A DNA stretch of 64,000 nt from a virus: IMG/VR virus record IMGVR_UViG_3300028920_000005, positions 1 to 64,000 of that record. One strand, written 5' to 3'. Positions 1 through 24,799 of the stretch are shown here, piece by piece. The position numbers and the translations under genes were made by a program. The notes beneath the pieces are model-generated. The model did not search any database and was not told the DNA's origin. It saw only the letters and a list, made by a program, of their open reading frames with translations. Every line of letters begins with the position of its first letter. The first letter of the stretch is position 1.

Positions 1-6
1 ATTCAA

Positions 7-3641: not shown

Positions 3642-3645
3642 ACTC

Positions 3646-4917: not shown

Positions 4918-6154
4918 TACTACCTCCCTTAATGATCCTAGCCTTCTCCAATACCTTATCCTCCATCTCTTTTATATTGGCCCCACACACTGGGCAATAC
5001 TTCCACTTCACGTTATCATATAACAATCCACCAAAGTTCGTCTTACAACTCATGCACTCTCTCAGTTGCGCCCTACTCAATAACCTCTCTACGTGATCGC
5101 CCTCTCTATTCAACCACATTAACTTCGACAACCAATTATCATACCGACTAACTCTCTGCGCCGGCACAATACAGATCCTCCTTCCATTTAATTCAAACCA
5201 TGCATTATCCACCCCACCCTTCAACTCCAACACCCCGAACACGGTCTTCATACTATTAACATAATTCGGATTATCCAAATAACTTTCAGCCATCATCGCG
5301 GCCTTCTTATACTCCTCTGACACATTCTCAGTGCGCCTCTCCGCCGCAAACCGATTGCCAGTCTCCTGCACAAACTTCCGCTTATAACTCTGCAACCGGC
5401 TCTGACTATTTAACTCATCCACCTTAATATCCATTTGCCTCGTGCCAACGCCCCTCGTATATCTTACCCTCAATACCTCCACCTCATCACCCATTGGCAC
5501 TATCTCATGCGATATGTACTCTTCAAACTTCTGAACGTAACTCACGAACCTCTCCACATAATCAATATTATCCTCAGCGCCTACCAACTTCTTCACCATC
5601 GCTTTGCCGAAATCAGTTATCTTAAACTCTTTCACCTGCAACTCTTCATTATCCCTCATATCAAGATACCCACTTGCCACCATCTTCGCTATAACTGAAT
5701 TGCTCTCTCTGCCACTGGGACACAACACTGGTCCAGGGATCCACCTCCCCTCTTCTTTAGCCTTCTTCAGTAACTCTGAACTCGAAGTATTAGGTCCAGG
5801 CCGACTCGTATACGCATTAACCATCGACCAAACAGATTCATTGTCACTCATCTTCGTAACAACAAACTTCAACTCTCCCTTCTTTACCATCTCCCTTGTT
5901 TCCTTAGTCACACGATAATAAGCCACCTCTCCGCCGTCGTTAAGGATACTCATGTTAACGTGACCCCTCTCTCTGAGGTTATTCATCTGACCATTAACTC
6001 TCTTCGTATAAGACGCCTGCCAACTTTCCCAACGCCTCTCCTCCTCTGTAGCAACCTCCAATGCCATCTCATGGGCATTATACGCAAGGTCAGAGTGCTC
6101 TATCAATAAATCTAATACGTTCTTCTGTATCCTTCCTACATATTCAGTCTTCAT
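4892..6154 (-). CDS. wHTH / C-terminal zinc-ribbon protein, paralogue B
   Basis: 420 aa. Same architecture as 3646..4917 with C-terminal CMSC...WKYCPVCGANIKEM. 26-nt overlap with paralogue A. Confidence 0.6.
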   Translation of the reverse strand: MKTEYVGRIQKNVLDLLIEHSDLAYNAHEMALEVATEEERRWESWQASYTKRVNGQMNNLRERGHVNMSILNDGGEVAYYRVTKETREMVKKGELKFVVTKMSDNESVWSMVNAYTSRPGPNTSSSELLKKAKEEGRWIPGPVLCPSGRESNSVIAKMVASGYLDMRDNEELQVKEFKITDFGKAMVKKLVGAEDNIDYVERFVSYVQKFEEYISHEIVPMGDEVEVLRVRYTRGVGTRQMDIKVDELNSQSRLQSYKRKFVQETGNRFAAERRTENVSEEYKKAAMMAESYLDNPNYVNSMKTVFGVLELKGGVDNAWFELNGRRICIVPAQRVSRYDNWLSKLMWLNREGDHVERLLSRAQLRECMSCKTNFGGLLYDNVKWKYCPVCGANIKEMEDKVLEKARIIKGGSSDAGNGVA

Positions 6155-6278
6155 TACAACTACCCCTTATACTACCTACAGTGAGCACACACTCATGTCA
6201 AAAATCAAAGGACGGTCGCTCAGGGGACAGAAGTCGCCCTTCATTACGACCGCCACAGGCAAGCCAACTTAAGCTCGC

Positions 6279-6494
6279 TCACCCGCCAGTCTGATCAGCG
6301 ATCAGGTCCAATGTCACGACTTCGGCCGCAAGTTTTCCACCCTGCTCATAGCTGGTTACGGGCACACCAGCAGCATCCAGCGCCACTAGGTAATACCCTT
6401 CCCTCTCCAGCTCTTGGGCCCTCTCTAAGGCCTGCAGGGGTTCCAACTCACACTCCGAATGTCCTGATTCATCTTGGACTCTCACAAGTGTCAT
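6279..6494 (-). CDS. small protein ending in Gly-Gly; candidate ThiS/MoaD/SAMP-like ubiquitin-like carrier
   Basis: 71 aa. Strong SD (AAAGGAGGTGAACC-ATG). Ends ...LIADQTGG-stop. Size and YYLVALDAAGVPV...VVTLDLI pattern resemble ThiS-type beta-grasp proteins. Visibly more GC-rich than the flanks. Confidence 0.4.
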   Translation of the reverse strand: MTLVRVQDESGHSECELEPLQALERAQELEREGYYLVALDAAGVPVTSYEQGGKLAAEVVTLDLIADQTGG

Positions 6495-6659
6495 GGTTCA
6501 CCTCCTTTGTGTTGTTGTTCTCTGTGTTAGTATTTAGCGTCATCATTCCTGCATCATAATCATTGAAACTTCACAAGAGTGCACAACTCAGATATCCTCG
6601 TATGTATATATAAAATGTTCGGACTGTTGGTTAGCACGCTCAGCCTCTCAGTTCTCTAT

Positions 6660-6980
6660 TCAATAATCACCATTCCTGTTCCCATTCTCCTCCACTTCGA
6701 TAGCAAATCGCTTATGCGACATCCTCACATACACGACCTTAACATCGAAGTCCGTCTCTTCGCATTCCGTCAAATCCGGCACAATTACGTTAACTAATTG
6801 CTGCACGTCCTTCTTCCTCCCCCTCAATATCAGTGCAACGTTGCAATACCAATCATCCGGTATCCTCGAATCATCACCATTGCGTTTCGCTGCTACCGCT
6901 GCTTCGTGCTCCCAATCAAATGCCGTAATTTCTTTCTCAACATCGTTCTCTGTTTCTTCAATACCAATTTCTTTATCCAT
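6660..6980 (-). CDS. hypothetical acidic protein
   Basis: 106 aa; GGAGGTG 7 nt upstream of the ATG at 6980. Confidence 0.55.
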   Translation of the reverse strand: MDKEIGIEETENDVEKEITAFDWEHEAAVAAKRNGDDSRIPDDWYCNVALILRGRKKDVQQLVNVIVPDLTECEETDFDVKVVYVRMSHKRFAIEVEENGNRNGDY

Positions 6981-7582
6981 TCTCTACACCTCCATTTCCA
7001 TTCCCAAACCATTTCATCCCATTCTCTATCAATCTTCAGTCGACGTATATCTCGATCCAACATAGGCACGCCAGTGTACCCCTCACACCACATGAATTCA
7101 AAGTCATGGTTCGCCGGTGGATTCATACTTCCTGTAACATGCCACTCCTTATTCTCCTCCGCCATGTAACAACTAATCATGTTCCTTCTTTGCAATATCG
7201 TTATATGAGCCTTCATCACATCCCACTGCTCGGCCGTATTAATCCTAAATATGTCAACTAACCTTATAACTGGGAACGTGGCCCAATCATAATCCCTCAA
7301 CATCCCCCACATCTTATTAATCTCATAATCAGTATGTACGAATGTCGCCCTAGTCATATCCACGGGCACAAGTTCTCCTCTCTTCATCTCATACTTATCT
7401 ACTCGGTCAACGTACGCTACATCATAACTCTCCCCATCACTCTCCAACCCCACCCCTTCAAAAATTTCCTCGATCACATCAGCCTTCGGCCTCATAGCTC
7501 CGGGCCCAGACTTCTTTTGCCTGGCGCTATGCCTAGCGGCGTAGAAAGCCGTCTCTGATGCATTCCTCGGATTATATCCCAT
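6893..7582 (-). CDS. hypothetical protein
   Basis: 229 aa, Trp-rich; the 3' end overlaps the next gene by 88 nt. Confidence 0.5.
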   Translation of the reverse strand: MGYNPRNASETAFYAARHSARQKKSGPGAMRPKADVIEEIFEGVGLESDGESYDVAYVDRVDKYEMKRGELVPVDMTRATFVHTDYEINKMWGMLRDYDWATFPVIRLVDIFRINTAEQWDVMKAHITILQRRNMISCYMAEENKEWHVTGSMNPPANHDFEFMWCEGYTGVPMLDRDIRRLKIDREWDEMVWEWKWRCREWIKKLVLKKQRTMLRKKLRHLIGSTKQR

Positions 7583-7613
7583 AGTGCTTACTCCTTCAGT
7601 GCTTCGTCCTTTA

Positions 7614-7826
7614 TCATTTCACCTCTAACAGTCTACCATTCCGCCTCCTCAGCGGCCTCCTATGTAGGCCGTTACCTTCAGTCTTACAAATATGACATCT
7701 GAAACTCTTCCCAGTGTAATACACACCACTGTCCCCTCTCTCTATCGATATCATTTCGTAATACACTGGTTCATAATCAGGGATATGTCTCCCACACGCC
7801 CCACAAGCTATCCCCTTCATAACCAT
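7614..7826 (-). CDS. zinc-ribbon protein
   Basis: 70 aa with CGACGRH...CHICKTEG. Confidence 0.5.
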   Translation of the reverse strand: MVMKGIACGACGRHIPDYEPVYYEMISIERGDSGVYYTGKSFRCHICKTEGNGLHRRPLRRRNGRLLEVK

Positions 7827-8089
7827 CCCAACACGTCAAGGATCCTACCTTCAATGTTCTCTAACTCATCGATCAACCAATTCCGATCCAAATACTGATC
7901 CTCCTCCGTCACCATCTTTCGAAGGTTACTCATATCTTTTTCTATTATCTTCTTCCAGACAACCTTGGTCTCATCCTCCGGTAACCTATCTCTCATTTCT
8001 TCAAAAGTACTCACACCGTAGTACTCCATCAGCCGATCCATTTGCCTCACATTCAATTCATTTATTTCCATAATCTTATCTCCTACCAT
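7817..8089 (-). CDS. hypothetical protein
   Basis: 90 aa, operon-packed, purine-rich sense strand. Confidence 0.45.
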   Translation of the reverse strand: MVGDKIMEINELNVRQMDRLMEYYGVSTFEEMRDRLPEDETKVVWKKIIEKDMSNLRKMVTEEDQYLDRNWLIDELENIEGRILDVLGWL

Positions 8090-8319
8090 ACTTTAACATA
8101 CTCTCCATGCTCCCCCGTAAAATCCGTTATCGTCCCCACCTCACAAATCCACCCATCGCCCACCGCTAAATCAATCACAATAACCACACCCACATACGGC
8201 GGCCATGCTACTCTCACAAACAAACAATCATCAATCTCAAGTACACCATCGCCCACACCCTCACACATCGGTCCTTCTGACCTCCCCCACATCCCCACAT
8301 CCGCACGTCGTTGTTTCAT
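8083..8319 (-). CDS. hypothetical protein
   Basis: 78 aa, operon-packed. Confidence 0.4.
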   Translation of the reverse strand: MKQRRADVGMWGRSEGPMCEGVGDGVLEIDDCLFVRVAWPPYVGVVIVIDLAVGDGWICEVGTITDFTGEHGEYVKVW

Positions 8320-8323
8320 AATT

Positions 8324-8524
8324 TCACTTCCTCAGTTCCTCAATCAACATTTCTTTGAACACTGACACAGTCGCTCTGATGAGCAACCCAATCTCCTTCT
8401 CCCATTCCACCTCCTCATCCCATTCCACCTCCCCCACATCCCAAACGATATCCTCCATATCCTCATCCCAGATTATTGCCCTTCTTAGTTCAGCAAAATT
8501 CACTCTCTCACCTTTAATTCCCAT
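8324..8524 (-). CDS. hypothetical acidic protein
   Basis: 66 aa, W/E-rich. Confidence 0.4.
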   Translation of the reverse strand: MGIKGERVNFAELRRAIIWDEDMEDIVWDVGEVEWDEEVEWEKEIGLLIRATVSVFKEMLIEELRK

Positions 8525-8732
8525 CTCCCAACATCTTCGTAAACGTCTCTTCCATCCCCATCATAAACTTTTCCAACTCATTCCGCCGTGCTATCCAAAT
8601 TCTTCTCTCCTCACTTCTTATCGCTTCGTTCTCCAGTATCTCAAACACCTTCTCTCTGAACTTCGCATTCAAATCCAAAAATCGGAATGAGTGCGGGTAA
8701 TCACTTTTCATTCCCAACATCATCTGATACAT
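8514..8732 (-). CDS. hypothetical protein
   Basis: 72 aa, operon-packed. Confidence 0.4.
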   Translation of the reverse strand: MYQMMLGMKSDYPHSFRFLDLNAKFREKVFEILENEAIRSEERRIWIARRNELEKFMMGMEETFTKMLGDGN

Positions 8733-8747
8733 CTTATCACTCCTTAA

Positions 8748-8876
8748 TTATATCGCCCTCGGTTCAAGATCATCTTCAGTAAGTCCAATCGGACAGTGCC
8801 CAGTATAGGGCGCACTGCAACGCTCACAGTACCTCGGGTAGTCTCTACACTTCTCACGTTTCTCCTTCTCATTCAT
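8748..8876 (-). CDS. Cys-rich mini-protein (42 aa, below the ORF-track cutoff)
   Basis: Hand translation gives MNEKEKREKCRDYPRYCERCSAPYTGHCPIGLTEDDLEPRAI. GGAGGTG lies 7 nt upstream of the ATG. Confidence 0.5.
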   Translation of the reverse strand: MNEKEKREKCRDYPRYCERCSAPYTGHCPIGLTEDDLEPRAI

Positions 8877-9122
8877 TCCAATCCACCTCCAATACAAATC
8901 ATTCTTAATCTTCACCCTTGGTAGGCGAGGGAACCCTTCAATTCAGATTCCCCCGCTCTACGGGTTCGGTCATTAAGTCGGCCGACAGACGTAAGGCTTT
9001 CCAGGTAGCCTCTCACCTTCAATACAGCATGTCGATCTCTGATCAACACACTTGCTTCCGTGCTGCTCACAGGCAGTCACTGGCAGTCACTTATCTGGTG
9101 CGTATGGTACACAGGCCCTATC

Positions 9123-9404
9123 TCATGCCATGCTGTACACGTTCTGACCGCGAAGAACCTTCTTCACTTCGCTCACCTTCGAATTCTTGACCAGGGTCTG
9201 AAGGCTGGAAAAGGTACTCTCGTGCCTCTTGATCCCAGCTCCCTTCTTGATCTCCTCGACGGTGAACCATGCGGGCTTCCCGGCCTTCTTCCGCTCAGCG
9301 GTTGCTTTGCGAAGGAAAGCCAGTATAGCCTCCTGGTTCGATCCTGCGGCCACCTCGTGCATCTCGCACAACTGAGACAGTTCCTCGTTAGACAAAGTCT
9401 TCAT
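9123..9404 (-). CDS. hypothetical protein, possibly DNA-binding
   Basis: 93 aa. SD TAGGAGGT upstream of the ATG. Sits in a GC-rich patch that differs in composition from its neighbours. Confidence 0.5.
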   Translation of the reverse strand: MKTLSNEELSQLCEMHEVAAGSNQEAILAFLRKATAERKKAGKPAWFTVEEIKKGAGIKRHESTFSSLQTLVKNSKVSEVKKVLRGQNVYSMA

Positions 9405-9618
9405 GTGTTCGATACCTCCTAGGTGTTCGACTTGTTGCGTTCACATGTCTAGCCCACAAACGATCAGTCCCTCGGACAATCCTTCAGATAATCCTTTAGA
9501 CCAACCTCCTCCTCCGCCACACCCCATACAGAAGAGGGAGGAAGCCACTAGTCCTCCCTCTCTCTGCGGGTGGGCGATCAGGATCTTCTTCCCAACCGCC
9601 AAACCATATCAGGCTTCC

Positions 9619-9813
9619 CTACTCTCCTTCCCCCGTTTCGCTTTCCAAATACTCAAGATGAGCAATCCACACATTGGCAGTCTCCTCTACCATATCCTCC
9701 ACAATACTCTCGATACCACCTTGCGGCTTTCCGATCCGCTTCTCAGCCTCCCCCCTCCAGTACTTGATCTTCTGCACTACCTCGTCTGACAGCTCAATAG
9801 TATATTTAGCCAT
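9619..9813 (-). CDS. hypothetical small protein
   Basis: 64 aa; overlaps the next gene start by 8 nt. Confidence 0.4.
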   Translation of the reverse strand: MAKYTIELSDEVVQKIKYWRGEAEKRIGKPQGGIESIVEDMVEETANVWIAHLEYLESETGEGE

Positions 9814-10276
9814 TCCAATTCACCTCGATCATCCAACGAACATATCTCAGGGCCGCAACCTTCGCCACATCCTCCAGATCACACCACTCCACGCACCCTG
9901 ATCCCACCCCTATGTATGCACCCTCTCTGATCTCGTCATACTCATTCTTCATCCACCCTATGTACTCCGTCAAGAGGGCAACCTCCTGATGCACACACAC
10001 ATCATCATCAGTAACCCCATACTCCTTCCCAACACAACTCACACATGCCACCACTCCACCACCAGCATAACATCCAATCATCTCAATGTCTTCAGCAAGC
10101 TGACGATCATCCTTCGGATTCCAAAACTGCTCATCTTCGCCGCTGGCCGCTACCCATGGCTCACACTCTTTTATGTGTCCGCTCTCTACTCGAGACTCAC
10201 ACACATGATCCATCAGTACGCCAACCAGCGTCTCATGCTCATTCATTTGTTTTCCACATACGTAACATTTCTTCAA
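9806..10276 (-). CDS. Cys-rich hypothetical protein
   Basis: 156 aa. TTG start 6 nt after GGAGGT. N-terminal CYVCGKQ plus further Cys clusters (CVSCVG). Confidence 0.5.
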   Translation of the reverse strand: MKKCYVCGKQMNEHETLVGVLMDHVCESRVESGHIKECEPWVAASGEDEQFWNPKDDRQLAEDIEMIGCYAGGGVVACVSCVGKEYGVTDDDVCVHQEVALLTEYIGWMKNEYDEIREGAYIGVGSGCVEWCDLEDVAKVAALRYVRWMIEVNWNG

Positions 10277-10417
10277 TCAATTACCTCCGTCTGTACTCTT
10301 TAATCTCTTCCTCCACCTCCACCCCCTCCCTATACAGACGAGGGAGGCTAAGTCGGCAGTCACCTGCACCTCATACTCTCAGCCTCCCCCGTCCTGCGGG
10401 ATGGGATCTGTTCATCC

Positions 10418-10849
10418 TTATTTCTTCAACACCATATCTACAACATACTCCAACATCGTCTTACCCGTTAAAACGGGTATTATATCATCTGTCCTGAAGT
10501 CGTTGTTATCTACCCAGTAACACAACACTCGGTAGACAATATTCTCCTGTGTGGCTGCCTCCTTCATCTCTCGATCTACATCCTGCACCGTTATGCTTAC
10601 GTCATACATCTTGACAAGTACCTTACCTGCCAACAAATGCATCTTCAGCTCATCCAACAACGACTTCCCTTCGCCACCCTCATCCCCATCCATCTCCTTC
10701 AACGTACAATATACGCTGTGCGCCATATACGTTAGAAGGCAATTCCCCTTCTGTTCGTTGGACAGGCTATCAAACTCACCCTCCAACCCATTCACCGCCA
10801 TCATCTTCCGCATAAGATCATTCGGTGATATGAATTCAAACCCCGCCAT
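10418..10849 (-). CDS. hypothetical protein
   Basis: 143 aa; the ATG overlaps the upstream mini-ORF. Confidence 0.5.
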   Translation of the reverse strand: MAGFEFISPNDLMRKMMAVNGLEGEFDSLSNEQKGNCLLTYMAHSVYCTLKEMDGDEGGEGKSLLDELKMHLLAGKVLVKMYDVSITVQDVDREMKEAATQENIVYRVLCYWVDNNDFRTDDIIPVLTGKTMLEYVVDMVLKK

Positions 10850-10949
10850 TCTTCTTCCTCCTTATCAGATACCCAGTCCCATTGCACTTCTCACAATCAC
10901 CACCTCTCCTCCCCTTACATTCAGGACACTTCACATATCCAACGCTCAT
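10836..10949 (-). CDS. DnaJ-type CxxCxGxG zinc-finger mini-protein (37 aa, below the ORF-track cutoff)
   Basis: Hand translation gives MSVGYVKCPECKGRRGGDCEKCNGTGYLIRRKKNGGV. ATGA overlap with the upstream stop. Confidence 0.45.
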   Translation of the reverse strand: MSVGYVKCPECKGRRGGDCEKCNGTGYLIRRKKNGGV

Positions 10950-11173
10950 TCCCTCACCACCTTAATCATTACGTACGCCCTCTTCACATCATCCGTCTTG
11001 CACCCAATAACCTTCCTCACCACTATATCCTTGTTCTGCCGAATGATACTTCTCACTGTTCCCTCCACCATCTCTAACTCCTCCGACAGTTCCTCATAGG
11101 TGTACGCCGTTCCTGCATTCTTCGTCAAGAAGTCAATTACCTTCTTTACATTTGTTTCATGTACTCCATTCAT
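10946..11173 (-). CDS. winged-helix DNA-binding protein
   Basis: 75 aa. KKVIDFLTKNAGTAYTYEELSEELEMVEGTVRSIIRQN resembles an HTH followed by a wing. Confidence 0.5.
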   Translation of the reverse strand: MNGVHETNVKKVIDFLTKNAGTAYTYEELSEELEMVEGTVRSIIRQNKDIVVRKVIGCKTDDVKRAYVMIKVVRE

Positions 11174-11243
11174 TTGTTATCACCTCCTCAACACTTCGTA
11201 AAGCGTCGAGCGTCATAAGTAACTATATTCGATTGTCTGATAA

Positions 11244-11819
11244 CTACTTTCGGAATTCTGTATCCCAGCAGTCTCTACTATAACTAAGTTCGTACAGACC
11301 TCCATCCTCGTGATGTTCGTCTGCTTCAACCTTCAGTACTTCAATCATCACACTATAAATATACATACACTCTTCACCGCACGCTAAAGGCCCTCTTCCC
11401 ATGTTATGTGCTTCAACCTTCAAAGTGTAAGTGTTCTTAAATTCTGATTCAAGTATGCTAATTGCTTTCAGCGTATCATCAAGCACATTCAGGTATACAT
11501 GCAACTTCATTCTGCCTCCTACCTTCAATACCCTCCACATCTCACGTATGGCGCTCTCATCAGTGTATACCATTACGCAACAACTCGAATGTACTTCTTC
11601 GAACGACTCATCCTTAAATGGCAACTGTTCTCCATCCGCTGCCACATAAAGTCCTTCATGTTTCGTTCCACGCCACCCGTACCTTCCTTCTGCACCGAGG
11701 TCTACGATAGCGCAGTCGTCAGTATACGGATCGCTACCTGCTCCAACGTCAAGCTTCATACAATCAACCTTCCAATCAACTTTCCTTCTTCGCAAATTAA
11801 TATTGTCGGTAGAAAGCAT
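11244..11819 (-). CDS. class I SAM-dependent methyltransferase
   Basis: 191 aa. Motif I LDVGAGS, acidic loop IVDL, LPFKDESFEEVHSS, and post-III REMWRVLKVGG, typical of Methyltransf_11-like enzymes. Substrate unknown. Confidence 0.6.
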   Translation of the reverse strand: MLSTDNINLRRRKVDWKVDCMKLDVGAGSDPYTDDCAIVDLGAEGRYGWRGTKHEGLYVAADGEQLPFKDESFEEVHSSCCVMVYTDESAIREMWRVLKVGGRMKLHVYLNVLDDTLKAISILESEFKNTYTLKVEAHNMGRGPLACGEECMYIYSVMIEVLKVEADEHHEDGGLYELSYSRDCWDTEFRK

Positions 11820-11852
11820 TCCTGATCGGTTCTTCTTCCGTACATAATTCTT

Positions 11853-12524
11853 TCACCAATCCATCTTTCCTAATGACTCCTTAACTTCTTCCTCCTCCCA
11901 CATATTCCACCTAGGCTCCTTAACAGCCAACAGTATCTCATCCCATCCGATATACATAAACAGTCTTACCATCACTGGCGCGAATTGCGTATACTGTTTA
12001 CGTTCACTCTTCAATTCCTTAATCTTGCCTTTTAACTTCTTCTTATCGTCATACGAACTAACTTTATTCACCTTCTGTTCAATATTCATTATCTTGTCAC
12101 TCAGTGCTGCGTGTTCTTCCTGTGCTCCTGCTTTCCTACTCGGTATTCTCATCCACTGCAGTTTAGTGTCGTTATTACTATCCAAGTCGAACATATGCTC
12201 TCTGAACACCTGCCTACTGTATGAGTACAAGTATTTAAAGTCAGGCTTACAGTATTCTTCATTGTCCAAATACTTCTGTCTGTGTGCATTGCAAACGTAG
12301 TGCAGTACTTTTCGCTTCAACTGCCATTCAGCAACCCTCTCAACTCCGTGCTCCTTACATTCGGCACAAAATCTTACCGGCTTACCTTCAGGCTTCATAA
12401 AGTACTCCCACGTTTGTCTAAGCTCCTCCAATTCGGCCGCATCCCGTATTCCAAGTAACAGCGATTTATATTCAGCGTAAGTCTTAAATCCGTTTGCCTT
12501 CATACTCCATCCGGCCTTCTTCAT
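11853..12524 (-). CDS. hypothetical protein (first gene of the leftward block)
   Basis: 223 aa. CAEC...CNAH Cys/His pairs. AT-rich TATA-like box (12541-12550) about 20 nt upstream of the ATG. Confidence 0.55.
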   Translation of the reverse strand: MKKAGWSMKANGFKTYAEYKSLLLGIRDAAELEELRQTWEYFMKPEGKPVRFCAECKEHGVERVAEWQLKRKVLHYVCNAHRQKYLDNEEYCKPDFKYLYSYSRQVFREHMFDLDSNNDTKLQWMRIPSRKAGAQEEHAALSDKIMNIEQKVNKVSSYDDKKKLKGKIKELKSERKQYTQFAPVMVRLFMYIGWDEILLAVKEPRWNMWEEEEVKESLGKMDW

Positions 12525-12689
12525 TAATTCTTTTATCTTTAATATATATTCCTTTGTACCTTCTTCCAGTATACCATCCTCCTTATTTCTTATTCCGTAT
12601 TCCTCATTAATATTGTATATAGTTACAGCTTCCTACTTCAGTTATATTGTGTTCTGTCCGTTCCGTTATTATATTTTAAAAATTTAATA

Positions 12690-12736
12690 ATTTAATAATA
12701 TATATAAATAGGACATATATATATAATTTGTGGGAA
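12690..12736. promoter_or_regulatory. AT-rich TATA-like element, copy 1 of 2 (TAATAATATATAT...CATATATATAATTT)
   Basis: Near-duplicate of 14750-14797. Both copies lie upstream of a leftward gene and at the start of a rightward non-coding stretch. Confidence 0.4.
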
Positions 12737-13037
12737 CTTTCCGTCCGGGCACGTCGGATGAACATAGGAAACCCTTTGTTGGAATATGACGAAGAACCAA
12801 TGAAGTTTGATCGAAGCACAAAGTTGCTGAACTGAGGAACTGAGAATTTTGAGAACGTCTCGTTCCGTCACAATGTCAGAGGCGGGCGCCAACAAGTGTC
12901 TTCCGATGTTTTCCGAGTTCATCGCTCCGGGCATATGAAGTGCAGGTATAAGGGCACGCTTCATTGATTTCGGCCATTCGGCTCTCAAACTACAGTCCCC
13001 TTTAATACTCTCAAAATTCGGGTGTTTTCGGTTATTC

Positions 13038-13107
13038 CCGTATATGTGTGTCCTTCGGTATATGATCATGATCCGGTTTATGTTCATGGTTCGGTATATG
13101 TGCGTGG
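13038..13107. repeat. four degenerate tandem units with core CGGTATATG
   Basis: ccgtatatgtg, tcggtatatgatcatg, ccggtttatgttcatgg and ttcggtatatgtgcgtgg start near 13038, 13055, 13073 and 13090, a period of about 17 nt. Confidence 0.5.
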
Positions 13108-13578
13108 TTTTGGGCAAGGACATTGGGGCCTTGGACCTTCTCAGGCGCTCATATTTACCCCTGGACCCATTTTGTAAATGGTTTGTCTTTATTCCTTTGT
13201 TTTTTCGCGATTCGGTATGACGTTCGGCTCGTTTCATACTAATATCACGTATATAGGTAACCCTCGTTTACGCCCAAAAACGTATTTCTTCGTGGTTTAC
13301 ACAGTATGACGATCATCGATTCTTTCTCGATCACTAACTGGCTGCCCATCCACAAAAATACGACCGTATTCGTGGTGCCGTCCTTGATATCTAGGCGTTG
13401 TGCGTCGATTCATACCTATTTCGGGGTTTAATTTTGTATCGGTCGGTCCCTAACATAGGTGGACGTCTCCCATATATGGTTGTTATTGTGCGGCTTCAGG
13501 TCTTGGGCCGTAAGGGTCTACCCCAATTTTCATATATTCGGTTACTGGTTTGTGCGTCTGGCTTCAGTGTCTTGTGCA

Positions 13579-13977
13579 TCAGACTTCGATGTCTTGTGCG
13601 TCAGTCTTACTGTCAAGCGCATCGTCTTCAGGCCAATAGTAGTAAATGAGATCCCTCCCAGTTACTCGTGGCATGAGCTTTCGCGCAACCAGTCCTTTCC
13701 GTTCCATGGCATATAAGCTGGCGAACACTGTCGTTACCGGTATGTCCAGTTTCTCCGACAGCTCTTTCGCAGTCCAGGCCGTCCCGGGGTCGTTCTCAAG
13801 CAGTTCCCTTATAGCTTCTTGCCTTCGGTTGTTTCCATTATATTCTTCCACATCTTTCAAGTCCTTCGTATTAATGGGCATTTCATATCCCTCCAGAGTG
13901 ATGCGCACTTCCTTTCGGCCCCTCTCTACGGCCGTTCCTCCCACGTTCCTCCTATCTTCCTCTACAGTCGGTCCCAA
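13579..13977 (-). CDS. winged-helix (MarR/TrmB-like) DNA-binding protein
   Basis: WTAKELSEKLDIPVTTVFASLYAMERKGLVARK resembles an HTH plus wing. The track start is TTG. A better start is the ATG at 13881 (MPINTK...), preceded by GGAGGG. Confidence 0.55.
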   Translation of the reverse strand: MGPTVEEDRRNVGGTAVERGRKEVRITLEGYEMPINTKDLKDVEEYNGNNRRQEAIRELLENDPGTAWTAKELSEKLDIPVTTVFASLYAMERKGLVARKLMPRVTGRDLIYYYWPEDDALDSKTDAQDIEV

Positions 13978-14025
13978 TCCGTGTCTACCAATAGAACCCC
14001 TGGGCAGTCTTATTCTGCTCAGGTA

Positions 14026-14664
14026 CTATACCGTGCTGTATCTTGCTTCCATCTTCTTACGGTAATGTTCTTCAATCTTCTGTTTAGTCTCCGGCTGTAC
14101 CCAGACGAACTCCCCTTTCCATTCTCCATCTTTCCGGTTCTGTACGTACACCATCACGCGACTATCTTCTTCCAGTTCGTCGTGGAGTCTTTCACGTTCG
14201 CGTTCTTCTTTTGACTTCGGTTTACGTGCTTCGTAGGTACTGCGTCCTGTTGCCTCAAACTTATACCACAGTTTTCCCTCAGACTCGACGGTTTCAACGA
14301 TTCCAAGTTCATACATCAGTTTGAGTACTTTCGTGATCGGTGATACTGACGGCTTCATTAGTATCATCTTTATTTCGTATTTCGTGTACCACAGATCTCG
14401 GTGTTCTCTCAACAGGCTAAGGACTCCCATGAACGTTCTGTGTTGATCTGGCTTCAGACGTGTTACGCGCCTCCGACGTACCACCTTATACAACCAACCT
14501 TCTTCTTCGTTGAGTCTTGTATACGGCACTACGTCATACCTCGCATACTCTCGGTATGTAAATCCACAGTCCGCGCAACTCTGTTTCATTAAGTCCTGCT
14601 TTCTTCCTACTAAACACCTTGGGCATACTTCAAATATTCTATCAGACCTCCATCCGTTGTTCAT
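14026..14664 (-). CDS. zinc-ribbon plus winged-helix DNA-binding protein
   Basis: 212 aa. N-terminal CPRC...CADCG. Central MGVLSLLREHRDLWYTKYEI...KVLKLMYELGIVETVESEGKLWYK is wHTH-like. Basic/acidic tail. Confidence 0.55.
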   Translation of the reverse strand: MNNGWRSDRIFEVCPRCLVGRKQDLMKQSCADCGFTYREYARYDVVPYTRLNEEEGWLYKVVRRRRVTRLKPDQHRTFMGVLSLLREHRDLWYTKYEIKMILMKPSVSPITKVLKLMYELGIVETVESEGKLWYKFEATGRSTYEARKPKSKEERERERLHDELEEDSRVMVYVQNRKDGEWKGEFVWVQPETKQKIEEHYRKKMEARYSTV

Positions 14665-14797: not shown

Positions 14798-15020
14798 AGA
14801 AGGATGGATGCCCTTAAGGGAGGAAGGGAAGAGGTAATGAATACTTGACCGAAGAACTATGAAGCAGAACGGCATAACATTTGAACAAAGGTTCTTTCCC
14901 ATAACATCCTAAACTCAACGGTCGGGCCTCAGCATAGTTTCTCCGATTGATTCTCAAGATTTCATAGCATTCTGTCACGGCCGTCGAACGGCGCTTCCGG
15001 GTCCAGTTCAGTGCTGTTGA

Positions 15021-15680
15021 GATCATCGGATTTCATCGGTTTTCATCTGAGCTCAGGGACCGGTCCCGGGATTCTATAGGGAGGCAAGCGAAGGCCACGG
15101 CCGTATGGCGAGTGCTGCGCAATGGGACTGACCCGGGTTCTCTGGGGAAGGGAGTAAGTGGGAATACTTATGGAACATGTGGGAACACTTAAGGACCTTT
15201 TGGGGGAACACTTAAGGACCTTTTGGAGGAACTTTGGGGCGAAGCCCTGGAAGGGACCGACTTTGGCGGACCAGCGGAACGTTTGGCGGAAGACCAGGAC
15301 CAGGCAGGACGGGTTGACGGATAGGTTGCCAGACCTGTCTCTGGCAACCTAAGGGCAAGATAGGTTGCCAGCCCTGTCATAGGCAAGATAGGTTGCCAGC
15401 CCTGTTAAGGGCAGGATGGGACATTCCAAAGGACCATCACCGGGAACTATGCCGGACAGTGCTGCGCCCTGACTGATGCGCTACCCTCTACGGACGGGCC
15501 CTCTAATGAACGTCGCGGACCGGTCCCGGCGGGGGCGTGAGTAATGCGCAAGACCATTCGGGGAATACTCTGAGGACATAATCACAAAGTTCCTGGACCG
15601 GTCCCGGGATTCTATATGGGACATGACGGCCGAGTGATGCGCGCCTGAGTGTTGCGCGCGGCTCTACGGACCGAACTCTG
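15021..15680. repeat. GC-rich non-coding block with several unrelated direct and inverted repeat families
   Basis: GGACCGGTCCCGG occurs three times (15057, 15517, 15595), and two copies extend to GGACCGGTCCCGGGATTCTATA. A 23-nt tandem GGGAACACTTAAGGACCTTTTGG occurs twice (15181-15226). ATAGGTTGCCAGNCCTGT occurs three times (15321, 15360, 15388). TCATCGGWTT occurs twice (15021-15049). ACTCTGAGGACAT occurs twice. GGACC occurs 10 times on the plus strand. Confidence 0.8.
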
Positions 15681-15717
15681 AGGACATTTTAGGAATAAAA
15701 AAATAAAATATTACAAT

Positions 15718-15848
15718 GTTACACTGTTACATATATTGTAATACTTGGAGTTACACTGTTACAATATGTGTAATACTGTTCTATCGTGTTACGCTGTTAC
15801 ACATATTGTAATACTGTAAAATTATACTATTACATATATTGTAATATT
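15718..15848. repeat. four ~28-nt iteron-like repeats (GTTACACTGTTACATATATTGTAATACT)
   Basis: Copies start at 15718, 15750, 15788 and 15821 (period 32-38 nt). Each contains inverted arms TTACA-N5-TGTAA. A fifth partial copy lies at about 16979-16999, beyond the two wHTH genes. Confidence 0.8.
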
Positions 15849-15853
15849 AAATT

Positions 15854-15926
15854 AAGTTACTTTGAATAGTGACAAAAAAATGTTACTTTCAATAGTGACA
15901 AATTAAGTTACTTTCAATAGTAACAA
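15854..15926. promoter_or_regulatory. three palindromic operator-like sites WWGTTAC-N8-GTRACAA
   Basis: Sites at 15854-15875, 15880-15901 and 15905-15926, spaced 25-26 bp centre to centre, with a conserved spacer TTTSAATA. Confidence 0.65.
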
Positions 15927-15992
15927 AAAAATAGGAATCATAAATTGATTTTGTACCCCATATATATTTACTAAATAAACTAATTAAAAAAA

Positions 15993-16024
15993 TACATTAA
16001 TGTATAATAAGATACATTAATGTA
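15993..16024. repeat. two copies of the perfect palindrome TACATTAATGTA
   Basis: 15993-16004 and 16013-16024, 20 bp apart, in AT-rich DNA. GATAACTT occurs twice at 16035-16053. Confidence 0.7.
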
Positions 16025-16251
16025 GATAAGTAATGATAACTTCTCGATAACTTATATATACTTTGCATGTTTTACTTAATATTACAATTGCATGAGTCGG
16101 GTTGTCCGCACTTCTTTAAGTGTTAAATTCCCTATCGGTAAAAAAAAGGACCGACTCACAAACGCAAAAAATGGTTAAGCAATTGTCCGAAAAAGAAGGG
16201 AATTATCGGAGGACAAACCTTTCAATCTACTAAAACATCGGAGGTAAAAAT

Positions 16252-16542
16252 ATGCCAAAAACGGACGAAGAGATTTTCAATGGGATTGACAGTGAATATT
16301 CAAGGGCTGGAAACAGTGAAGGACGAAAGGATGAGATAATAAAATACCTCAAAAAAATGAGGTCAACAGATCATCCAATAGCAACCATAGACGAAGTACA
16401 TTTGAAAATGTCCTTCAGTCACACCAAACGGCAGAATACATATTCTGCAATAATGGAATTGATCCGTGAAGGTAGAATACTCGGAAGGAAAAACGGAAAT
16501 GGTCATTGGATGGTATTCTATCCCGAAGGAAGCAAAAAATAA
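16252..16542 (+). CDS. winged-helix DNA-binding protein
   Basis: 96 aa; GGAGGT 7 nt upstream; YSAIMELIREGRILGRKNGNGHWMVFY is wHTH-like. The gene sits in an AT-rich island. Confidence 0.55.
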   Translation: MPKTDEEIFNGIDSEYSRAGNSEGRKDEIIKYLKKMRSTDHPIATIDEVHLKMSFSHTKRQNTYSAIMELIREGRILGRKNGNGHWMVFYPEGSKK

Positions 16543-16599
16543 TTAGGTTTTTTGAAAGGTTCCTTAAACGATAATTCCCTTCAATAAAGAGGTGTTTAA

Positions 16600-16911
16600 A
16601 TGTGGGATATGAAACTAAATTCAATCAATGGGCCAAAACCAATAGATGAAACGATCATCCTGCAAAGATGTATTTGTAAGGGATTATTGAGAAAACAAGT
16701 CATGGATATTGCAATGATTTTCGTTGAAAGTCCTGATACTTGGATATCTCCAAATGAGATATTTCATTACCTAAACCTTATCGAAGATAGGGCAATGCAG
16801 ATAAACATTAATGCAATTACTGTAATACTTTGCTGGATGAAAGATAAAGAAGCAATTGAGGAAATAATCACTCCAACAGAAAAGAGTTATTATCGACTTG
16901 TCACCGAATAG
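16600..16911 (+). CDS. winged-helix DNA-binding protein
   Basis: 103 aa; AGAGGTG upstream; ...ITVILCWMKDKEAIEEIITPTEKSYYRL is wHTH-like. The stop codon is embedded in an operator-like palindrome. Confidence 0.5.
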   Translation: MWDMKLNSINGPKPIDETIILQRCICKGLLRKQVMDIAMIFVESPDTWISPNEIFHYLNLIEDRAMQININAITVILCWMKDKEAIEEIITPTEKSYYRLVTE

Positions 16912-16957
16912 AGTGACAAAAAAATAACTTGATATTTGTCACTTTAATAAGTGACAA
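16898..16957. promoter_or_regulatory. two palindromic operator-like sites TTGTCAC-N8-GTGACAA
   Basis: Perfect inverted arms at 16898-16919 and 16936-16957. Same family as the three sites at 15854-15926. Confidence 0.65.
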
Positions 16958-17391
16958 TTTTTTTTATTTCATTTATAATGTTACACATATTGTAATATTG
17001 TATATTATTAATTATATTTTTTTTTAATAAATTTCAATTTTTTTTTAATACCTACCGCAACGTATCTATACAATATAGCCTAGTTCAAAACCCTTGTCCC
17101 AAAATTCGGGTAACCAAAAGTTCCTGTGGACCCTGGCGTCGTTCCTATGGGCCGTGCCATTGTGTTAGGGCCGCGCCGCTTAAACCACCTATATAAGATA
17201 TTTGAATATATTAACATATGCGCGGAGGGCATTGCCGATTTGCTGCCGTCCTGCGATATCATATGTATATATATAAGAAGGGCGCTGCGCCGCTGTCCTG
17301 TTGCATTATAGTTTGGGGCCTTGTCTCTTTGTCCCTTTGCTTAAGACTTCCCCTCCCATCGGAGGAGGGGATTTATCGACAGTCCCATATC

Positions 17392-17400
17392 TTTATATAT
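17392..17400 (+). promoter_or_regulatory. TATA-like box TTTATATAT upstream of the rightward late block
   Basis: Lies 18-26 nt upstream of the in-frame GTG at 17418. A hairpin CCCCTCC-N-GGAGGGG at about 17351-17370 precedes it. An archaeal-type or bacterial -10 reading cannot be distinguished. Confidence 0.35.
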
Positions 17401-17417: not shown

Positions 17418-18098
17418 GTGTGTCGAATATGCCCTGGGAGGGAAAAGACCATTCCGTTGGAAGGCAATGATCTGAGGAAAGCAGAAGAGGAGCAGCAGGT
17501 GGAGGGGGAGAGGGTTGTTGCGGAGGAGAATTGTGCGTTGTGCAATCACCCCGATAGGAAGCATATTGAAGATGGGTTGGCGACCGGAGAGTTGAGGCGG
17601 AAGGCCGTGGCCGAAGATTTGGATATGTCGATGCAGGAGATGCATGACCATATGATGCATCATTTTACGAGGTTTGGTGTGAGGGATGAGAAAGGGGATG
17701 TTATTGGGGATCAGGCGCATGTGCCTAATGAGATCAGGAAGTTGTATAATAAGAAGGATATTCTGTTTAATTTGATGGTGGATTTGAAGGAGAGGTTGGA
17801 TTTATATTTTGCGAAGGATGAGTTTGATCCGTCTGAGACGACTGAGATTGTGCGGATGGTGGATGCGGTTAGGAAGTTGATTGATTCGTTGCATACGTTG
17901 GAGAAGGATCTCAAGTCTGAGAATGATTTGGTGTTGAAGAATTATGAGGACTTGAAGATGATTATTTTGAGTAAGCTTTGTGGGCCCTGCAGAGGGGCTG
18001 TGATGGAGGCCTTGGAGAAGGCGGAAGAGAATAACGAAAAGAAAGTGATCGCTGAGATAAAGGATGATGGCAGTATACCGATGCCCCAATGGAAGTGA
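17418..18098 (+). CDS. terS: terminase small subunit-like protein (zinc ribbon + HTH + coiled coil)
   Basis: The track ORF starts at 17301, but the first 39 codons run through the TATA box and hairpin. From GTG 17418 it reads MCRICPG...CALCNHPDRKHIEDGLATGELRRKAVAEDLDMSMQEMHDHMMHH. This is the CxxCxH-x-R-x2-I-x5-G-x3-R-x-A...H pattern common in phage small terminase/HTH proteins. Confidence 0.5.
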   Translation: MCRICPGREKTIPLEGNDLRKAEEEQQVEGERVVAEENCALCNHPDRKHIEDGLATGELRRKAVAEDLDMSMQEMHDHMMHHFTRFGVRDEKGDVIGDQAHVPNEIRKLYNKKDILFNLMVDLKERLDLYFAKDEFDPSETTEIVRMVDAVRKLIDSLHTLEKDLKSENDLVLKNYEDLKMIILSKLCGPCRGAVMEALEKAEENNEKKVIAEIKDDGSIPMPQWK

Positions 18099-22670: not shown

Positions 22671-23270
22671 ATGGACAGAATTGTTGTGGTGCAGGGTGAT
22701 ACGCCTGTATTTGAATTTACGATCCTTGACGCAAACGATAAGCCACTGGACTTGGGCCTCGTGTCCACGATAATTTTTAAGATGGCGAGGGTGGGAGAAG
22801 AGGATGGGCATGTGGCGGAAGTCTGTAGTATTTCTAATGTGCCCGGGACTGATGGAAAGTGTTACATAGGTCTGACGGCGGCGCAAACTGAAGATGATGG
22901 GGAGTATTTGGCCGAGGTAGAAATTCATATGAATACGGGCGAGATCCTTAGTCCGTTGCAGTTTACCGTTGGCATTGTGAATGAGGTCGATGAACCTAAA
23001 CTTGATACACCTGTTGTTGTGGATTTGGTTACGCCTAATGTGACTGGCGATTATCAGGTGGCATGGTCTACTGTTGATGATGCAACGAGTTATGTGTTGG
23101 AAGAAGATGATGGTACGGGGTGGTCGACAGTGTACAGCGGCCCCAACACATATTATGATGTGACTGGGAATACTGATGGCAGTTATTTTTATAGGGTTAC
23201 TGCGACAGCATCATATCATAAGAATTCGGACGTAAGCGATGTTGTAGGAATAACGGTGGATATTCCGTGA
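22671..23270 (+). CDS. Ig-like / fibronectin type III-like domain protein
   Basis: 199 aa. The N-terminal domain resembles 35072..35482. The C-terminal YQVAWSTVDDATSYVLEEDDGTGWSTVYSGPNTYYDVTGNTDGSYFYRVTA is FN3-like. Confidence 0.5.
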   Translation: MDRIVVVQGDTPVFEFTILDANDKPLDLGLVSTIIFKMARVGEEDGHVAEVCSISNVPGTDGKCYIGLTAAQTEDDGEYLAEVEIHMNTGEILSPLQFTVGIVNEVDEPKLDTPVVVDLVTPNVTGDYQVAWSTVDDATSYVLEEDDGTGWSTVYSGPNTYYDVTGNTDGSYFYRVTATASYHKNSDVSDVVGITVDIP

Positions 23271-24799
23271 ACTTGATTGGGCAATTAAGGAATGAATTAG
23301 AAGCAATGGAAGATGTTGTAGTATATACTCGGCAGATTTTGGGCATCGATTGGTTGTTTGAAAGACAGTGGAAAGTGCTTAAAGAGTTTTATAATAAGAG
23401 TCCAGATACAGGCCGAATGATTTTTAAAGATATGGTTTTATGTTGGGGGATGCGTAGTGGTAAGACAACGGAAGCTTCGATTATCGCCACATATGAGGGA
23501 TTTAAGCTTATACAAATGGGCACACCTTGTGCACATTATGGGTTACCGGCAGGGACAGAGATTTTCATCATCAATGTGGCTACTTCTGACAGGCAGGCGA
23601 AAGACACTGTGTTTGCACATATTAAAGCGAGATTCGAATATTCCAGATGGTGGAAGAACCAGAAAAAGATTGAAAGACATAACGAAATTGTCTTTCCCGT
23701 TCAGGATGGGAAGATTATATTTAGAAGTGAACATTCAAACTCTGCGTCGTTAGCGGGGAAGAATGTGATTTGTAGCGTTTTCGATGAGATGGCAAGATTC
23801 AAGCAAACTGGTGGAGTGGCTAGCGCCGAGATGGTGTATGATACCTTATCTCGTGGTGCGAAGACATTTAAGAAGGATGGTAAGCGGATTGCGATAAGTA
23901 GTCCTGTGTTGGTGGATGATTTCTTTTATGGCGAATTATATATGAAGGGCAAGAATGAACCTCAAGTTTATGTTGATCATGGTGCAACGTGGGAAGTTAA
24001 TGATACAATTGGAATGGAGGATCTTGAAGATGAATTCAGAAGGAACCCTGAGACAGCTATGCGAGACTATGGTGCAATCCCAAGTCATGCCATTGAGCGG
24101 TACTTTAGAGAATTTAATCGTATAGAGTTGTTGGAGAGAGGTACTCCGAATCCTAGAGTGACATTTGCGGAGCACAAGTTAGAGGATAATAGTATTGAGA
24201 TGTTGTGTGATATTAAGAATGTTGATGGGACGGATTGGAAAGGACAGCAAGGCATAATATATCATTCGGCCGGAGATCCTGCTGTGAAGAATGATGTATT
24301 TGGCTTTGCGTTAGGGCATAAGAGTCCAACTGGTATGCTCATGTGTGATTTGATATTTACGTTTGGGCATGATGATATGGGTAAGGATAACGATGGTAAG
24401 CAGATTAAAGAAGTTGATGCGAGGAAGGTTAAGGCCCTGGTGTTGGAGCTGAGGAAGAGATGTTTGTTGGCATGTTTTGTTACAGATATCTGGAACTTTC
24501 CTGAGACACTCCAGGAGATTAGGCGAAACGGAATTGAGGTAAGGCAAAATACTGTTGGCAAAAGGGAGTATGACCATTTCAAGGAGAAAGGGTATTTGGG
24601 AGAAGTGGATTTGCCGACTAATGCTTTGGTCTTGCATGAATTTGAGAATTTGGAAGTAATCAATCAGACGAAGGTCGAGCATCCGAGGACTGGGAGCAAG
24701 GACACTTCAGATGCGGTCGTGAACATGTTTTATAGCTTCCAGGAAAAGAGTAAGGCAATACGTGAGGAACCCGTAGCAGTATCTGTAGTGGTGGTATAA
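23267..24799 (+). CDS. terL: terminase large subunit
   Basis: 510 aa. Walker A CWGMRSGKTTEAS, Walker B VICSVFDEMARF, and a C-terminal nuclease-like block HSAGDPAVKNDVFGFALGH. Confidence 0.85.
   Translation: MNLIGQLRNELEAMEDVVVYTRQILGIDWLFERQWKVLKEFYNKSPDTGRMIFKDMVLCWGMRSGKTTEASIIATYEGFKLIQMGTPCAHYGLPAGTEIFIINVATSDRQAKDTVFAHIKARFEYSRWWKNQKKIERHNEIVFPVQDGKIIFRSEHSNSASLAGKNVICSVFDEMARFKQTGGVASAEMVYDTLSRGAKTFKKDGKRIAISSPVLVDDFFYGELYMKGKNEPQVYVDHGATWEVNDTIGMEDLEDEFRRNPETAMRDYGAIPSHAIERYFREFNRIELLERGTPNPRVTFAEHKLEDNSIEMLCDIKNVDGTDWKGQQGIIYHSAGDPAVKNDVFGFALGHKSPTGMLMCDLIFTFGHDDMGKDNDGKQIKEVDARKVKALVLELRKRCLLACFVTDIWNFPETLQEIRRNGIEVRQNTVGKREYDHFKEKGYLGEVDLPTNALVLHEFENLEVINQTKVEHPRTGSKDTSDAVVNMFYSFQEKSKAIREEPVAVSVVVV

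Follow-up and report, generated by a model that had tools for sequence, protein, structure and literature searches.

The virus record IMGVR_UViG_3300028920_000005 contains, at about positions 15,700 to 17,040, an AT-rich island of ~1.35 kb in which two small genes lie between clusters of palindromic DNA sites. We analysed this island within a window of 64,000 nucleotides (positions 1 to 64,000 of the record), which corresponds to positions 425-64424 of an 89,216-bp metagenomic contig (ENA ERZ27252253 k141_909181). We tentatively read the island as a cassette of regulators and operators that is autoregulated and lineage-specific and lies at the early/late junction of a tailed, probably archaeal virus, a reading to which we give close to even weight.

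Sites and genes of the AT-rich island

Within the island, the GC content drops to 18-24%, compared with 45% across the window, which bears out the sharp compositional difference reported in a preliminary description made from the sequence alone. Of all 80-bp duplex segments in the 64-kb window, the two with the lowest stability start here, at 16971 and 15960, with values ~5 standard deviations above the mean, and both adjoin repeat arrays. Three families of repeats, called P, I and T, were recovered where the preliminary description had placed them (Table 1), giving a total of twelve palindromic sites of at least three classes distributed on both sides of the two genes. Their clustering is non-random: between 15 and 18 kb, five P, five I and two T sites were observed, whereas shuffles preserving local composition in 1-kb blocks predict 0.2, 0.17 and 0.03, respectively. 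The core TTACA-N5-TGTAA occurs five times in 64 kb, every time inside the island, and scans for the I core pattern in IMG/VR and for a 26-nt I unit in the JGI metagenomes returned zero arrays and single matches that are taken as chance.

The P family, with five sites in the island, has the general form TTGTNAC-N8-GTNACAA. P1 to P3 are spaced by 26 and 25 bp and can alternatively be described as six GTNAC pentamers with a period of 12-13 bp, while P4 spans the TAG stop codon of gene 16600-16911, as had been noticed earlier, and P5 abuts a T8 run. The four left I units follow one another at 32, 38 and 33 bp. The I family had previously been described as iteron-like and unrelated to the P family, a view that we revise: both families are built on the pentamer GTTAC/GTNAC, and each I unit, rather than being a plain direct iteron, holds a 15-bp palindromic core. 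Neither the I nor the P spacing is helically phased.

The two genes between the arrays, encoding gp16252 and gp16600, were called as open reading frames (ORFs) in the source assembly and carry strong Shine-Dalgarno sites, as elsewhere in this virus. Their GC content of 34-38% and weaker G>C skew set them apart from the neighbouring genes (42-51% GC).

Table 1. Coordinates of the island, its sites and the adjoining features (window positions)
Feature	Position	Strand	Description
I array, left	15718..15848	+	Four 28-nt units at 15718-15745, 15750-15777, 15788-15815 and 15821-15848; consensus GTTACACTGTTACATATATTGTAATACT
I palindromic cores	15727-15741, 15759-15773, 15797-15811, 15830-15844		TTACA-N5-TGTAA, 15 bp
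I unit five (I-e)	16972-16999		Core 16981-16995; inside the putative oligo-T terminator zone
P array, left (P1-P3)	15854..15926		Three 22-bp dyads WWGTTAC-N8-GTRACAA at 15854-15875, 15880-15901 and 15905-15926
P array, right (P4, P5)	16898..16957		Perfect TTGTCAC-N8-GTGACAA at 16898-16919 and 16936-16957
T pair	15992-16005, 16012-16025		ATACATTAATGTA(T/G); ATACATTAATGTAT and ATACATTAATGTAG, 20 bp apart
Candidate cassette promoter	16035..16094	+	TATA-like CTTATATATAC at 16051-16061; predicted start ~16079
Inverted repeat around gene 1, left arm	16195..16225	+	31 nt, AAGGGAATTATCG-N7-AACCTTTCAA
Gene 1, gp16252	16252..16542	+	96 aa; Shine-Dalgarno GGAGGT; orphan, winged-helix model
Inverted repeat around gene 1, right arm	16552..16582	+	T6 run 16548-16553 just ahead
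Gene 2, gp16600	16600..16911	+	103 aa; Shine-Dalgarno AGAGGTG; orphan, winged-helix-like sequence pattern
Putative oligo-T terminator zone	16958..17046	+	T8 16958-16965, T9 17017-17025, T9 17038-17046; least stable duplex
Perfect TATA box	17392-17399	+	TTTATATA; predicted start ~17419, at the first codon of gene 17418-18098
terS-position gene	17418..18098	+	226 aa; two zinc-ribbon-like CxxC pairs and a helix-turn-helix (HTH); first gene of the late rightward block
GC-rich non-coding flank	14900..15690		55-59% GC; own repeats
Outlying sixth perfect P site	5841-5862		TTGTCAC-N8-GTAACAA, TTGTCACTCATCTTCGTAACAA; inside the 420-aa gene 4892-6154 (minus strand)

Two orphan DNA-binding candidates

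Searches with gp16252 and gp16600 in ~5.8 billion protein clusters returned self-matches only, and a full HMMER search with gp16600 against 1.84 billion representatives found only the protein itself. Meanwhile, sequence searches of Pfam, PHROGs, NCBIfam, PADLOC and the PDB gave nothing significant for either. The island pair is paralogous neither to each other nor to the neighbouring proteins gp13579 and gp14026.

The AlphaFold2 model of gp16252 (predicted local distance difference test, pLDDT, 69) shows the canonical H-S-H-H-S-S winged-helix topology (H1-S1-H2-H3-S2-W-S3 fold), and all top Foldseek matches in the PDB and among viral models are winged-helix domains, with weak E values of ~2e-3 to 5e-2 (best ~2e-3 to 5e-3; none at or below 1e-3). 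Of the two small winged-helix proteins announced in the preliminary description, gp16252 is therefore supported as one by its model, while for gp16600 the AlphaFold model of the protein alone, with no homologues at hand for an alignment, is unusable (pLDDT 52) and a match to the FUR N-terminal domain stays below threshold (E 0.07). The best structural matches of gp16252, themselves weak, are MarR, Fur/PerR, ArsR and MecI repressors, and its viral matches include primase C-terminal winged-helix (origin-binding) domains, a Replication initiator A family protein and TubR. Since these matches span repressors, primase origin-binding domains and TubR, the fold does not discriminate between the hypotheses considered here.

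The TubR match, from Clostridium botulinum phage c-st, speaks for a plasmid-like partition centromere, in which the arrays would be bound by a TubR/ParR-type winged-helix adaptor and the virus kept as an episome. Centromeres are arrays of short repeats and can flank par genes, which also counts for this explanation. However, a ParA, ParM or TubZ-type NTPase was detected neither beside the island nor in the examined parts of the contig; here and below, negatives on gene content cover ~74 of the 89 kb, through protein scans and precomputed Pfam lists. We consider a centromere the least probable of the explanations, and very improbable in itself.

The orphan status of both genes, their foreign composition and the organization of the unit, with a predicted promoter and terminators of its own, would also suit an accessory moron-type cassette for anti-defence or superinfection exclusion, consisting of one effector and an Aca-like winged-helix autoregulator with no role in the early/late programme. 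In line with this, the locus holds differing gene sets in relatives (one, two or four small genes). Aca proteins autoregulate anti-CRISPR operons, and Aca1/Aca2-type autoregulation typically relies on one or two inverted repeats, an arrangement exceeded by the twelve palindromic sites on both sides of the island genes. Besides, both products resemble DNA binders rather than an effector and its regulator, and several relatives also have, at this place, a small winged-helix gene with palindromes around it, which suggests a core function rather than an optional one. An accessory role thus appears rather improbable.

Transcription signals, the regulator/operator reading and its rivals

The best plus-strand TATA-like box inside the island, CTTATATATAC, lies 190 nt upstream of gene 1. 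Two copies of GATAACTT (16035-16042, 16046-16053) overlap the position of the transcription factor B recognition element (BRE) and TATA box of this predicted promoter, and two copies of TTGCATG (16063-16069, 16088-16094) lie on either side of the predicted start. Relative to this start, the T pair is located at ~-86 to -53, P1-P3 at ~-225 to -150, the I array at ~-360 to -230, and P4, P5 and I-e at ~+820 to +920, such that only the T pair and the two short direct-repeat pairs lie at the predicted cassette promoter. Predicted TATA boxes are found at ~14780, 16051-16061 and 17392-17399, and none of them is overlapped by P or I sites, the arrays lying 0.9 kb from the TATA box of the leftward operon (~14780) and 0.4-0.5 kb from that of terS.

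In archaea, oligo-T signals termination. On the plus strand from 15697 to 16924, 13 A-runs of at least 5 nt stand against a single T-run, the T6 just after gene 1, and T8, T9 and T9 come next, a pattern that fits a single rightward transcription unit with its end just past P4/P5. Matches to sigma-70 promoters and intrinsic terminators (among them GTGACA-17-TATAAT at 16951-16979 and P5 with T8) were not used as primary evidence, given the probable archaeal host. With its own genes, Shine-Dalgarno sites, candidate TATA box and candidate oligo-T terminators, the island agrees with its earlier description as a self-contained module. Gene 1 is further enclosed by a 31-nt inverted repeat with 25 of 31 positions matching (23 in the best of 60 shuffles), in which identical blocks of 13/13 and 10/10 surround a 7-nt mismatch. 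In both the minimum free energy and the centroid folds, it forms a long-range RNA helix around the whole gene (z = -4.8), and its role may be in the processing or stability of the RNA or in translational coupling.

The island lies 0.5 kb upstream of the gene for gp17418. Because homologues of gp17418 immediately precede the large terminase gene (TerL) in at least 12 relatives, we take it as the gene in the small-terminase (terS) position, with which the late block opens; its product is probably the small terminase itself. In this virus and in the relative L074, ~5 kb of beta-helix/tail-fibre-like genes are inserted between the terS-position gene and TerL.

An identical 24-nt motif, TATATAAAGAnATnGGACTGTCGA, occurs at 17376-17399 (minus) and 31989-32012 (plus), within ~75 nt of wider similarity. 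One copy lies upstream of the head-gene block (gene 32096) and the other is directed leftward, from the terS TATA box towards the island. The motif may be a late-promoter/leader module, in which case a late leftward transcript would converge on the cassette.

Such adjacency to terS could also mark a packaging recognition region for the terminase (pac, or cos with accessory sites), and the gp17418 homologues directly ahead of TerL count for it, as do the AT islands 0.25-1 kb upstream of terS in many relatives and the several large related contigs whose start or end falls a few kb or less ahead of TerL. The terS protein of lambda binds repeated R sites that immediately precede its own gene. Here, however, the sites surround two unrelated regulator-like genes and do not abut terS, the island lies inside the contig, 16-17 kb from its start, and the L077 contig begins 3 kb ahead of its island, all of which makes a packaging function highly unlikely. 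The idea of a genome terminus is unsupported here, as the contig continues through the island.

In the regulator/operator cassette that we favour, a TATA-type promoter at ~16051-16061 would drive rightward transcription of the two small genes, and T8/T9/T9 would stop it, with the T6 run and the long-range RNA helix around gene 1 probably setting the ratio of the two products. These would be dimeric winged-helix-type DNA-binding proteins, and the P, I and T dyads would be their operators, possibly also used by the neighbouring winged-helix proteins gp13579 and gp14026. It is the two-fold symmetry of all three site classes that points to dimeric winged-helix or HTH binders. The T pair and the short promoter repeats would serve local autoregulation, while the P/I arrays at the ends of the unit, ~1 kb apart, could be bound cooperatively, with looping or a roadblock, so that the cassette is shut down and either insulated from or coupled to the late promoter of terS, which lies 0.4 kb further rightward. 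Looping or a roadblock appears likelier than promoter occlusion because the arrays bracket the unit. We favour this cassette because dyad sites stand beside genes for small dimer-type binders in a self-contained unit, because the late promoter is near, and because proteins and sites turn over jointly among relatives. By analogy, such joint turnover at a fixed position would correspond to the pattern of immunity or regulatory regions, as in hetero-immune phages.

Several observations weigh against this interpretation. Because no predicted promoter is overlapped, classical operator occlusion fails to explain the P/I arrays, and only two cassette proteins have to account for three or more classes of sites and, in addition, two pairs of short direct repeats. 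As both proteins are without homologues, no function can be transferred to them; the winged helix of gp16600, proposed from its sequence pattern, is a candidate fold, and proteins that bind origins or centromeres likewise have winged-helix folds. One perfect P site sits in the distant gene 4892-6154, 10 kb from the island; by our own estimate, ~0.004 perfect matches are expected by chance. The presence of the window's two least stable duplex segments in the island is equally expected of an origin. Finally, no integrase, excisionase, plasmid-prophage function or other lysogeny gene was seen among the scanned proteins or in the precomputed Pfam lists for ~74 of the 89 kb, leaving a lysis/lysogeny switch without support.

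The strongest rival, although an unlikely one, is a replication origin, in which the AT blocks would be unwinding elements and the two island proteins, bound to the P/I arrays as virus-specific origin binders, would recruit the family-B polymerase machinery of the virus, with cassette and sites co-evolving as an origin-specificity module. Archaeal origins comprise an AT-rich unwinding element with flanking repeats, and those of Thermococcales have a cluster of repeats on each side of the initiator gene (PMC5333045, PMC1904270). The island resembles archaeal oriC (PMC5333045, PMC1904270) in its easily melted AT-rich segments, its flanking repeat clusters and the DNA-binding genes between them, although the unwinding-element feature is not origin-specific. 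The least stable 80-bp windows (16971, 15960) are flanked by repeat arrays, the AT island borders on GC-rich repeats in this virus as in relatives, and it lies at the divergence of the transcription arms, near the cumulative GC-skew minimum. Moreover, the virus encodes its own PolB, ribonucleotide reductase (RNR) and dUTPase, and gp16252 has primase domains and a Replication initiator A family protein as structural neighbours, which point in the same direction.

Unlike archaeal oriC, however, the island lacks an Orc1/Cdc6 gene and the core of the origin recognition box (ORB), TTCC...GGAA, its repeats being GTNAC-based palindromes instead. Genes for Orc1/Cdc6, MCM, Rep or primase are neither adjacent nor seen in the examined ~74 kb, and no AAA+/Cdc6 match was obtained in or around the island, whose proteins have 96 and 103 aa. 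The ORB core is not enriched: with up to one mismatch, TTCCNNTGGAA occurs 11 times in the window versus 20 expected, and never in 15700-17040 (nearest 15424, 17121 and 17452). The GC skew is confounded by transcription direction and gives no independent evidence of an origin, because its sign goes with the orientation of the genes and changes once more at 53 kb. Plasmid iterons are in helical phase, unlike the I units (32/38/33 bp) and P sites (26/25 bp), which are moreover palindromes and not directional repeats.

Iteron plasmid origins combine a Rep protein with WH1-WH2 domains, direct iterons of 17-22 bp in ori and inverted half-iterons as operator. The island shares with them winged-helix proteins, a GTTAC word in direct and inverted arrangements and an adjacent AT-rich region, but it has two proteins of single-domain size instead of one two-domain Rep, and its repeat spacing is irregular, not ~22 bp. 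Searches of Pfam, NCBIfam and PHROG yielded no Rep-family (Rep_3/RepA-like) match for the island proteins. The island thus fails the defining features of both ORB-type and iteron-type origins that could be tested. Were it an origin nonetheless, it would use a non-Orc1 mode of origin recognition.

The GC-rich flank holds the palindrome GGACCGGTCC three times, two of them within identical 22-mers (GGACCGGTCCCGGGATTCTATA) at 15057 and 15595, together with a 23-bp array of three copies at 15159-15232, a 28-bp array of 2.4 copies at 15350-15417 and two copies of CTCTACGGAC. Analogous GC-rich repeats precede the AT island in the relatives L074, L080 and L089. A hidden ORF or an alternative genetic code in the GC-rich 14.7-15.7 kb was rejected, since every stop type occurs in all frames, and RNA folding of this segment (z ~ -2.4 on both strands) is not decisive. 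Taken together, GC-rich repeats, AT island, small winged-helix gene(s) and flanking palindromes upstream of terS could represent a conserved origin, or a combined origin and late switch, of an undescribed archaeal tailed-virus clade, a proposal that we regard as doubtful. If it were true, binding proteins and sites would be swapped together as a specificity module, and orphan 100-aa winged-helix proteins would be virus-specific initiators replacing Orc1/Cdc6.

Known systems, relatives and the virus

Compared with described systems, the island would be a further viral DNA-binding-protein/operator cassette, from a group of viruses about which little is known. It cannot be shown to belong to the lambda, Ss-LrpB or F55 families, because its proteins are orphans, overlap of operators with promoters was not seen and lysogeny genes were not found. 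The lambda immunity region (cI-rex, with OL/OR looping) is closest in geometry, with regulator genes between two clusters of dyad sites ~1 kb apart in an AT-rich, lineage-specific segment between divergent arms. The island repeats this lambda-type layout with three P and four I sites to the left of genes 16252-16911 and two P and one I site to the right. In contrast, lambda operators overlap pL and pR/pRM, whereas the P/I arrays overlap no predicted promoter. The island encodes winged-helix-type orphans of ~100 aa rather than cI/Cro HTH proteins, its probable archaeal host would use TATA/BRE promoters, and no lysogeny gene was found in the examined ~74 kb. The preliminary comparison to an OL/OR-type switch therefore stands for the dyad-symmetric sites on both sides of DNA-binding-type genes and goes unsupported as originally worded, because such a switch needs operators overlapping divergent promoters.

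In site design, the closest system is Ss-LrpB of Sulfolobus solfataricus, whose control region has three regularly spaced 15-bp boxes, TTGCAAAATTTGCAA, subject to cooperative binding and DNA wrapping (PMC1802622). In both, the box is a 15-bp palindrome whose half-sites, of four conserved bp each, surround a weak centre of five bp (TTACA-WWWWW-TGTAA in the island), and it is repeated at regular intervals beside a regulator gene. However, the island proteins are too short for an HTH plus RAM domain, and family-library searches gave no Lrp/AsnC match for gp16252 or gp16600. The island boxes also lie 230-360 bp upstream of the predicted start instead of in the promoter, with a fifth box downstream of the genes. 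Among archaeal viruses, F55 of SSV1, SvtR and AvtR are DNA-binding regulators (PMC5569661). They resemble the proposed cassette as small, virus-encoded dimeric binders of short motifs repeated at several viral sites, and F55-type regulators time early versus late expression on the host RNA polymerase, a likeness that we extend to the island. Unlike the candidate winged-helix proteins of the island, most of whose sites lie away from promoters, these regulators are ribbon-helix-helix proteins with sites over the transcription start site or BRE.

Of 47 loci with at least 2 kb of sequence ahead of TerL, a sharp AT-rich island is present within the preceding 8 kb in 14 and downstream of TerL in one; in many relatives, the island lies 0.25-1 kb upstream of terS. 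In L077, the island carries a 98-aa winged-helix-like gene, with an ATCTG-N6-CAGAT site present twice upstream and once, inverted, downstream, and is followed by tandem repeats, a homing-endonuclease-like gene, terS and TerL. In L089, GC-rich hairpin repeats lead into an AT island in which a 112-aa winged-helix-like gene lies among six TTCAAAT-N4-ATTTGAA palindromes, with terS 250 bp further on. The AT island of L078 lies exactly at the divergence point, after the last minus-strand genes, spans 3.6 kb with four small plus-strand genes and repeat arrays, and reaches terS. In L074, GC-rich GGACC/GGTCC-type repeats are accompanied by two AT-rich genes, each with a duplicated TATA-Shine-Dalgarno unit, and by a conserved 103-aa winged-helix gene homologous to that of gp13579 in the window.

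A profile of the relatives' island proteins aligns in register with gp16252, although weakly (E 0.008, probability 5%). The earlier suggestion that the pairing of repeats and genes be sought in related genomes has a divided answer: neither the repeat sequences nor the two proteins recur outside this virus, while the architecture does. Judged from sequence comparison, layout and position are kept in relatives while proteins and sites are replaced. The closest relatives (L003, L004, L005 and L064, with 72-77% TerL identity) fall outside this site comparison, as their contigs end or lose synteny before the region.

To our knowledge, almost nothing is known of expression timing or replication start in tailed viruses of non-halophilic archaea, for which the island offers a compact testable system of two ~100-aa proteins and three site classes, at a position conserved across the whole TerL clade while its sequences are replaced. 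If the proteins bind the sites, the island would join the small number of regulator/operator sets that are defined for archaeal tailed viruses and would be a source of orthogonal DNA-binding parts. The significance would be greater were the island the master late switch of the clade or a non-Orc1 origin; if it is neither regulator nor origin, it would be an ordinary regulatory region of an uncultivated virus.

The contig has the genes of a contractile-tailed virus, including TerL (23267-24799, Pfam PF27249), portal, a DUF3383 sheath-type protein, tape measure and baseplate J. Genes lie on the minus strand from 1 to 14664, on the plus strand from 16252 to 53026 and again on the minus strand from 53.3 to 64 kb, a layout that places the island at the divergence point of two transcription arms. 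The GC skew is very strong and tracks the gene strand, with a second switch at 53 kb. Past this point, the minus strand encodes QueC, FolE2, QueD, a QueE-type protein, a PD-(D/E)XK nuclease, RNR, dUTPase and an intein-containing family-B polymerase.

The host of this tailed virus is probably archaeal, as indicated by five lines of evidence. Among 185,579 species genomes, TerL has a single relative, carried by a contig that was binned with a Thermoplasmata metagenome-assembled genome; the best polymerase matches in deposited phage genomes are haloarchaeal tailed viruses; and the neighbouring regulator gp13579 has its top, sub-threshold scores with archaeal Sta1, Lrs14, halobacterial Lrp, TFE-alpha and Csa3. 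In L074, the duplicated unit TTTATATA, ~22 nt, GGAGGT and ATG has the layout of an archaeal TATA box, and operons in the window are preceded by TATA-like boxes. The archaeal framing of the preliminary description is consistent with this evidence. A DNA similarity search against 50,697 phage records, a TerL single-protein scan of IMG/VR, and Rfam and tRNA scans of the window produced no match.

Three independent contigs of the closest relative (L003, L004 and L064; 77% TerL identity), each from a different sample, end at about the same point within the large beta-helix gene, ~4.4 kb ahead of TerL, which suggests that this receptor-binding gene is hypervariable or repeat-rich. A 7-deazaguanine (queuosine/archaeosine-type) gene set comprising QueC, FolE2, QueD/PTPS and a radical-SAM QueE-like protein is complete at 53353-58656 and in L009. 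A uracil-DNA-glycosylase-family gene lies beside it, and the intein of the family-B polymerase is of the LAGLIDADG type. The DNA of the virus is probably modified. To the left of the island, the ORF 12692-13237 is a doubtful gene whose skew is atypical and whose C-terminus derives from TATATA. It lies within a region (12525-13578) that includes the window's third least stable duplex segment, an AT-rich patch at 12540-12740, and tandem repeats of 18 bp (three copies, 13054-13109) and 22 bp (2.7 copies, 13550-13608).

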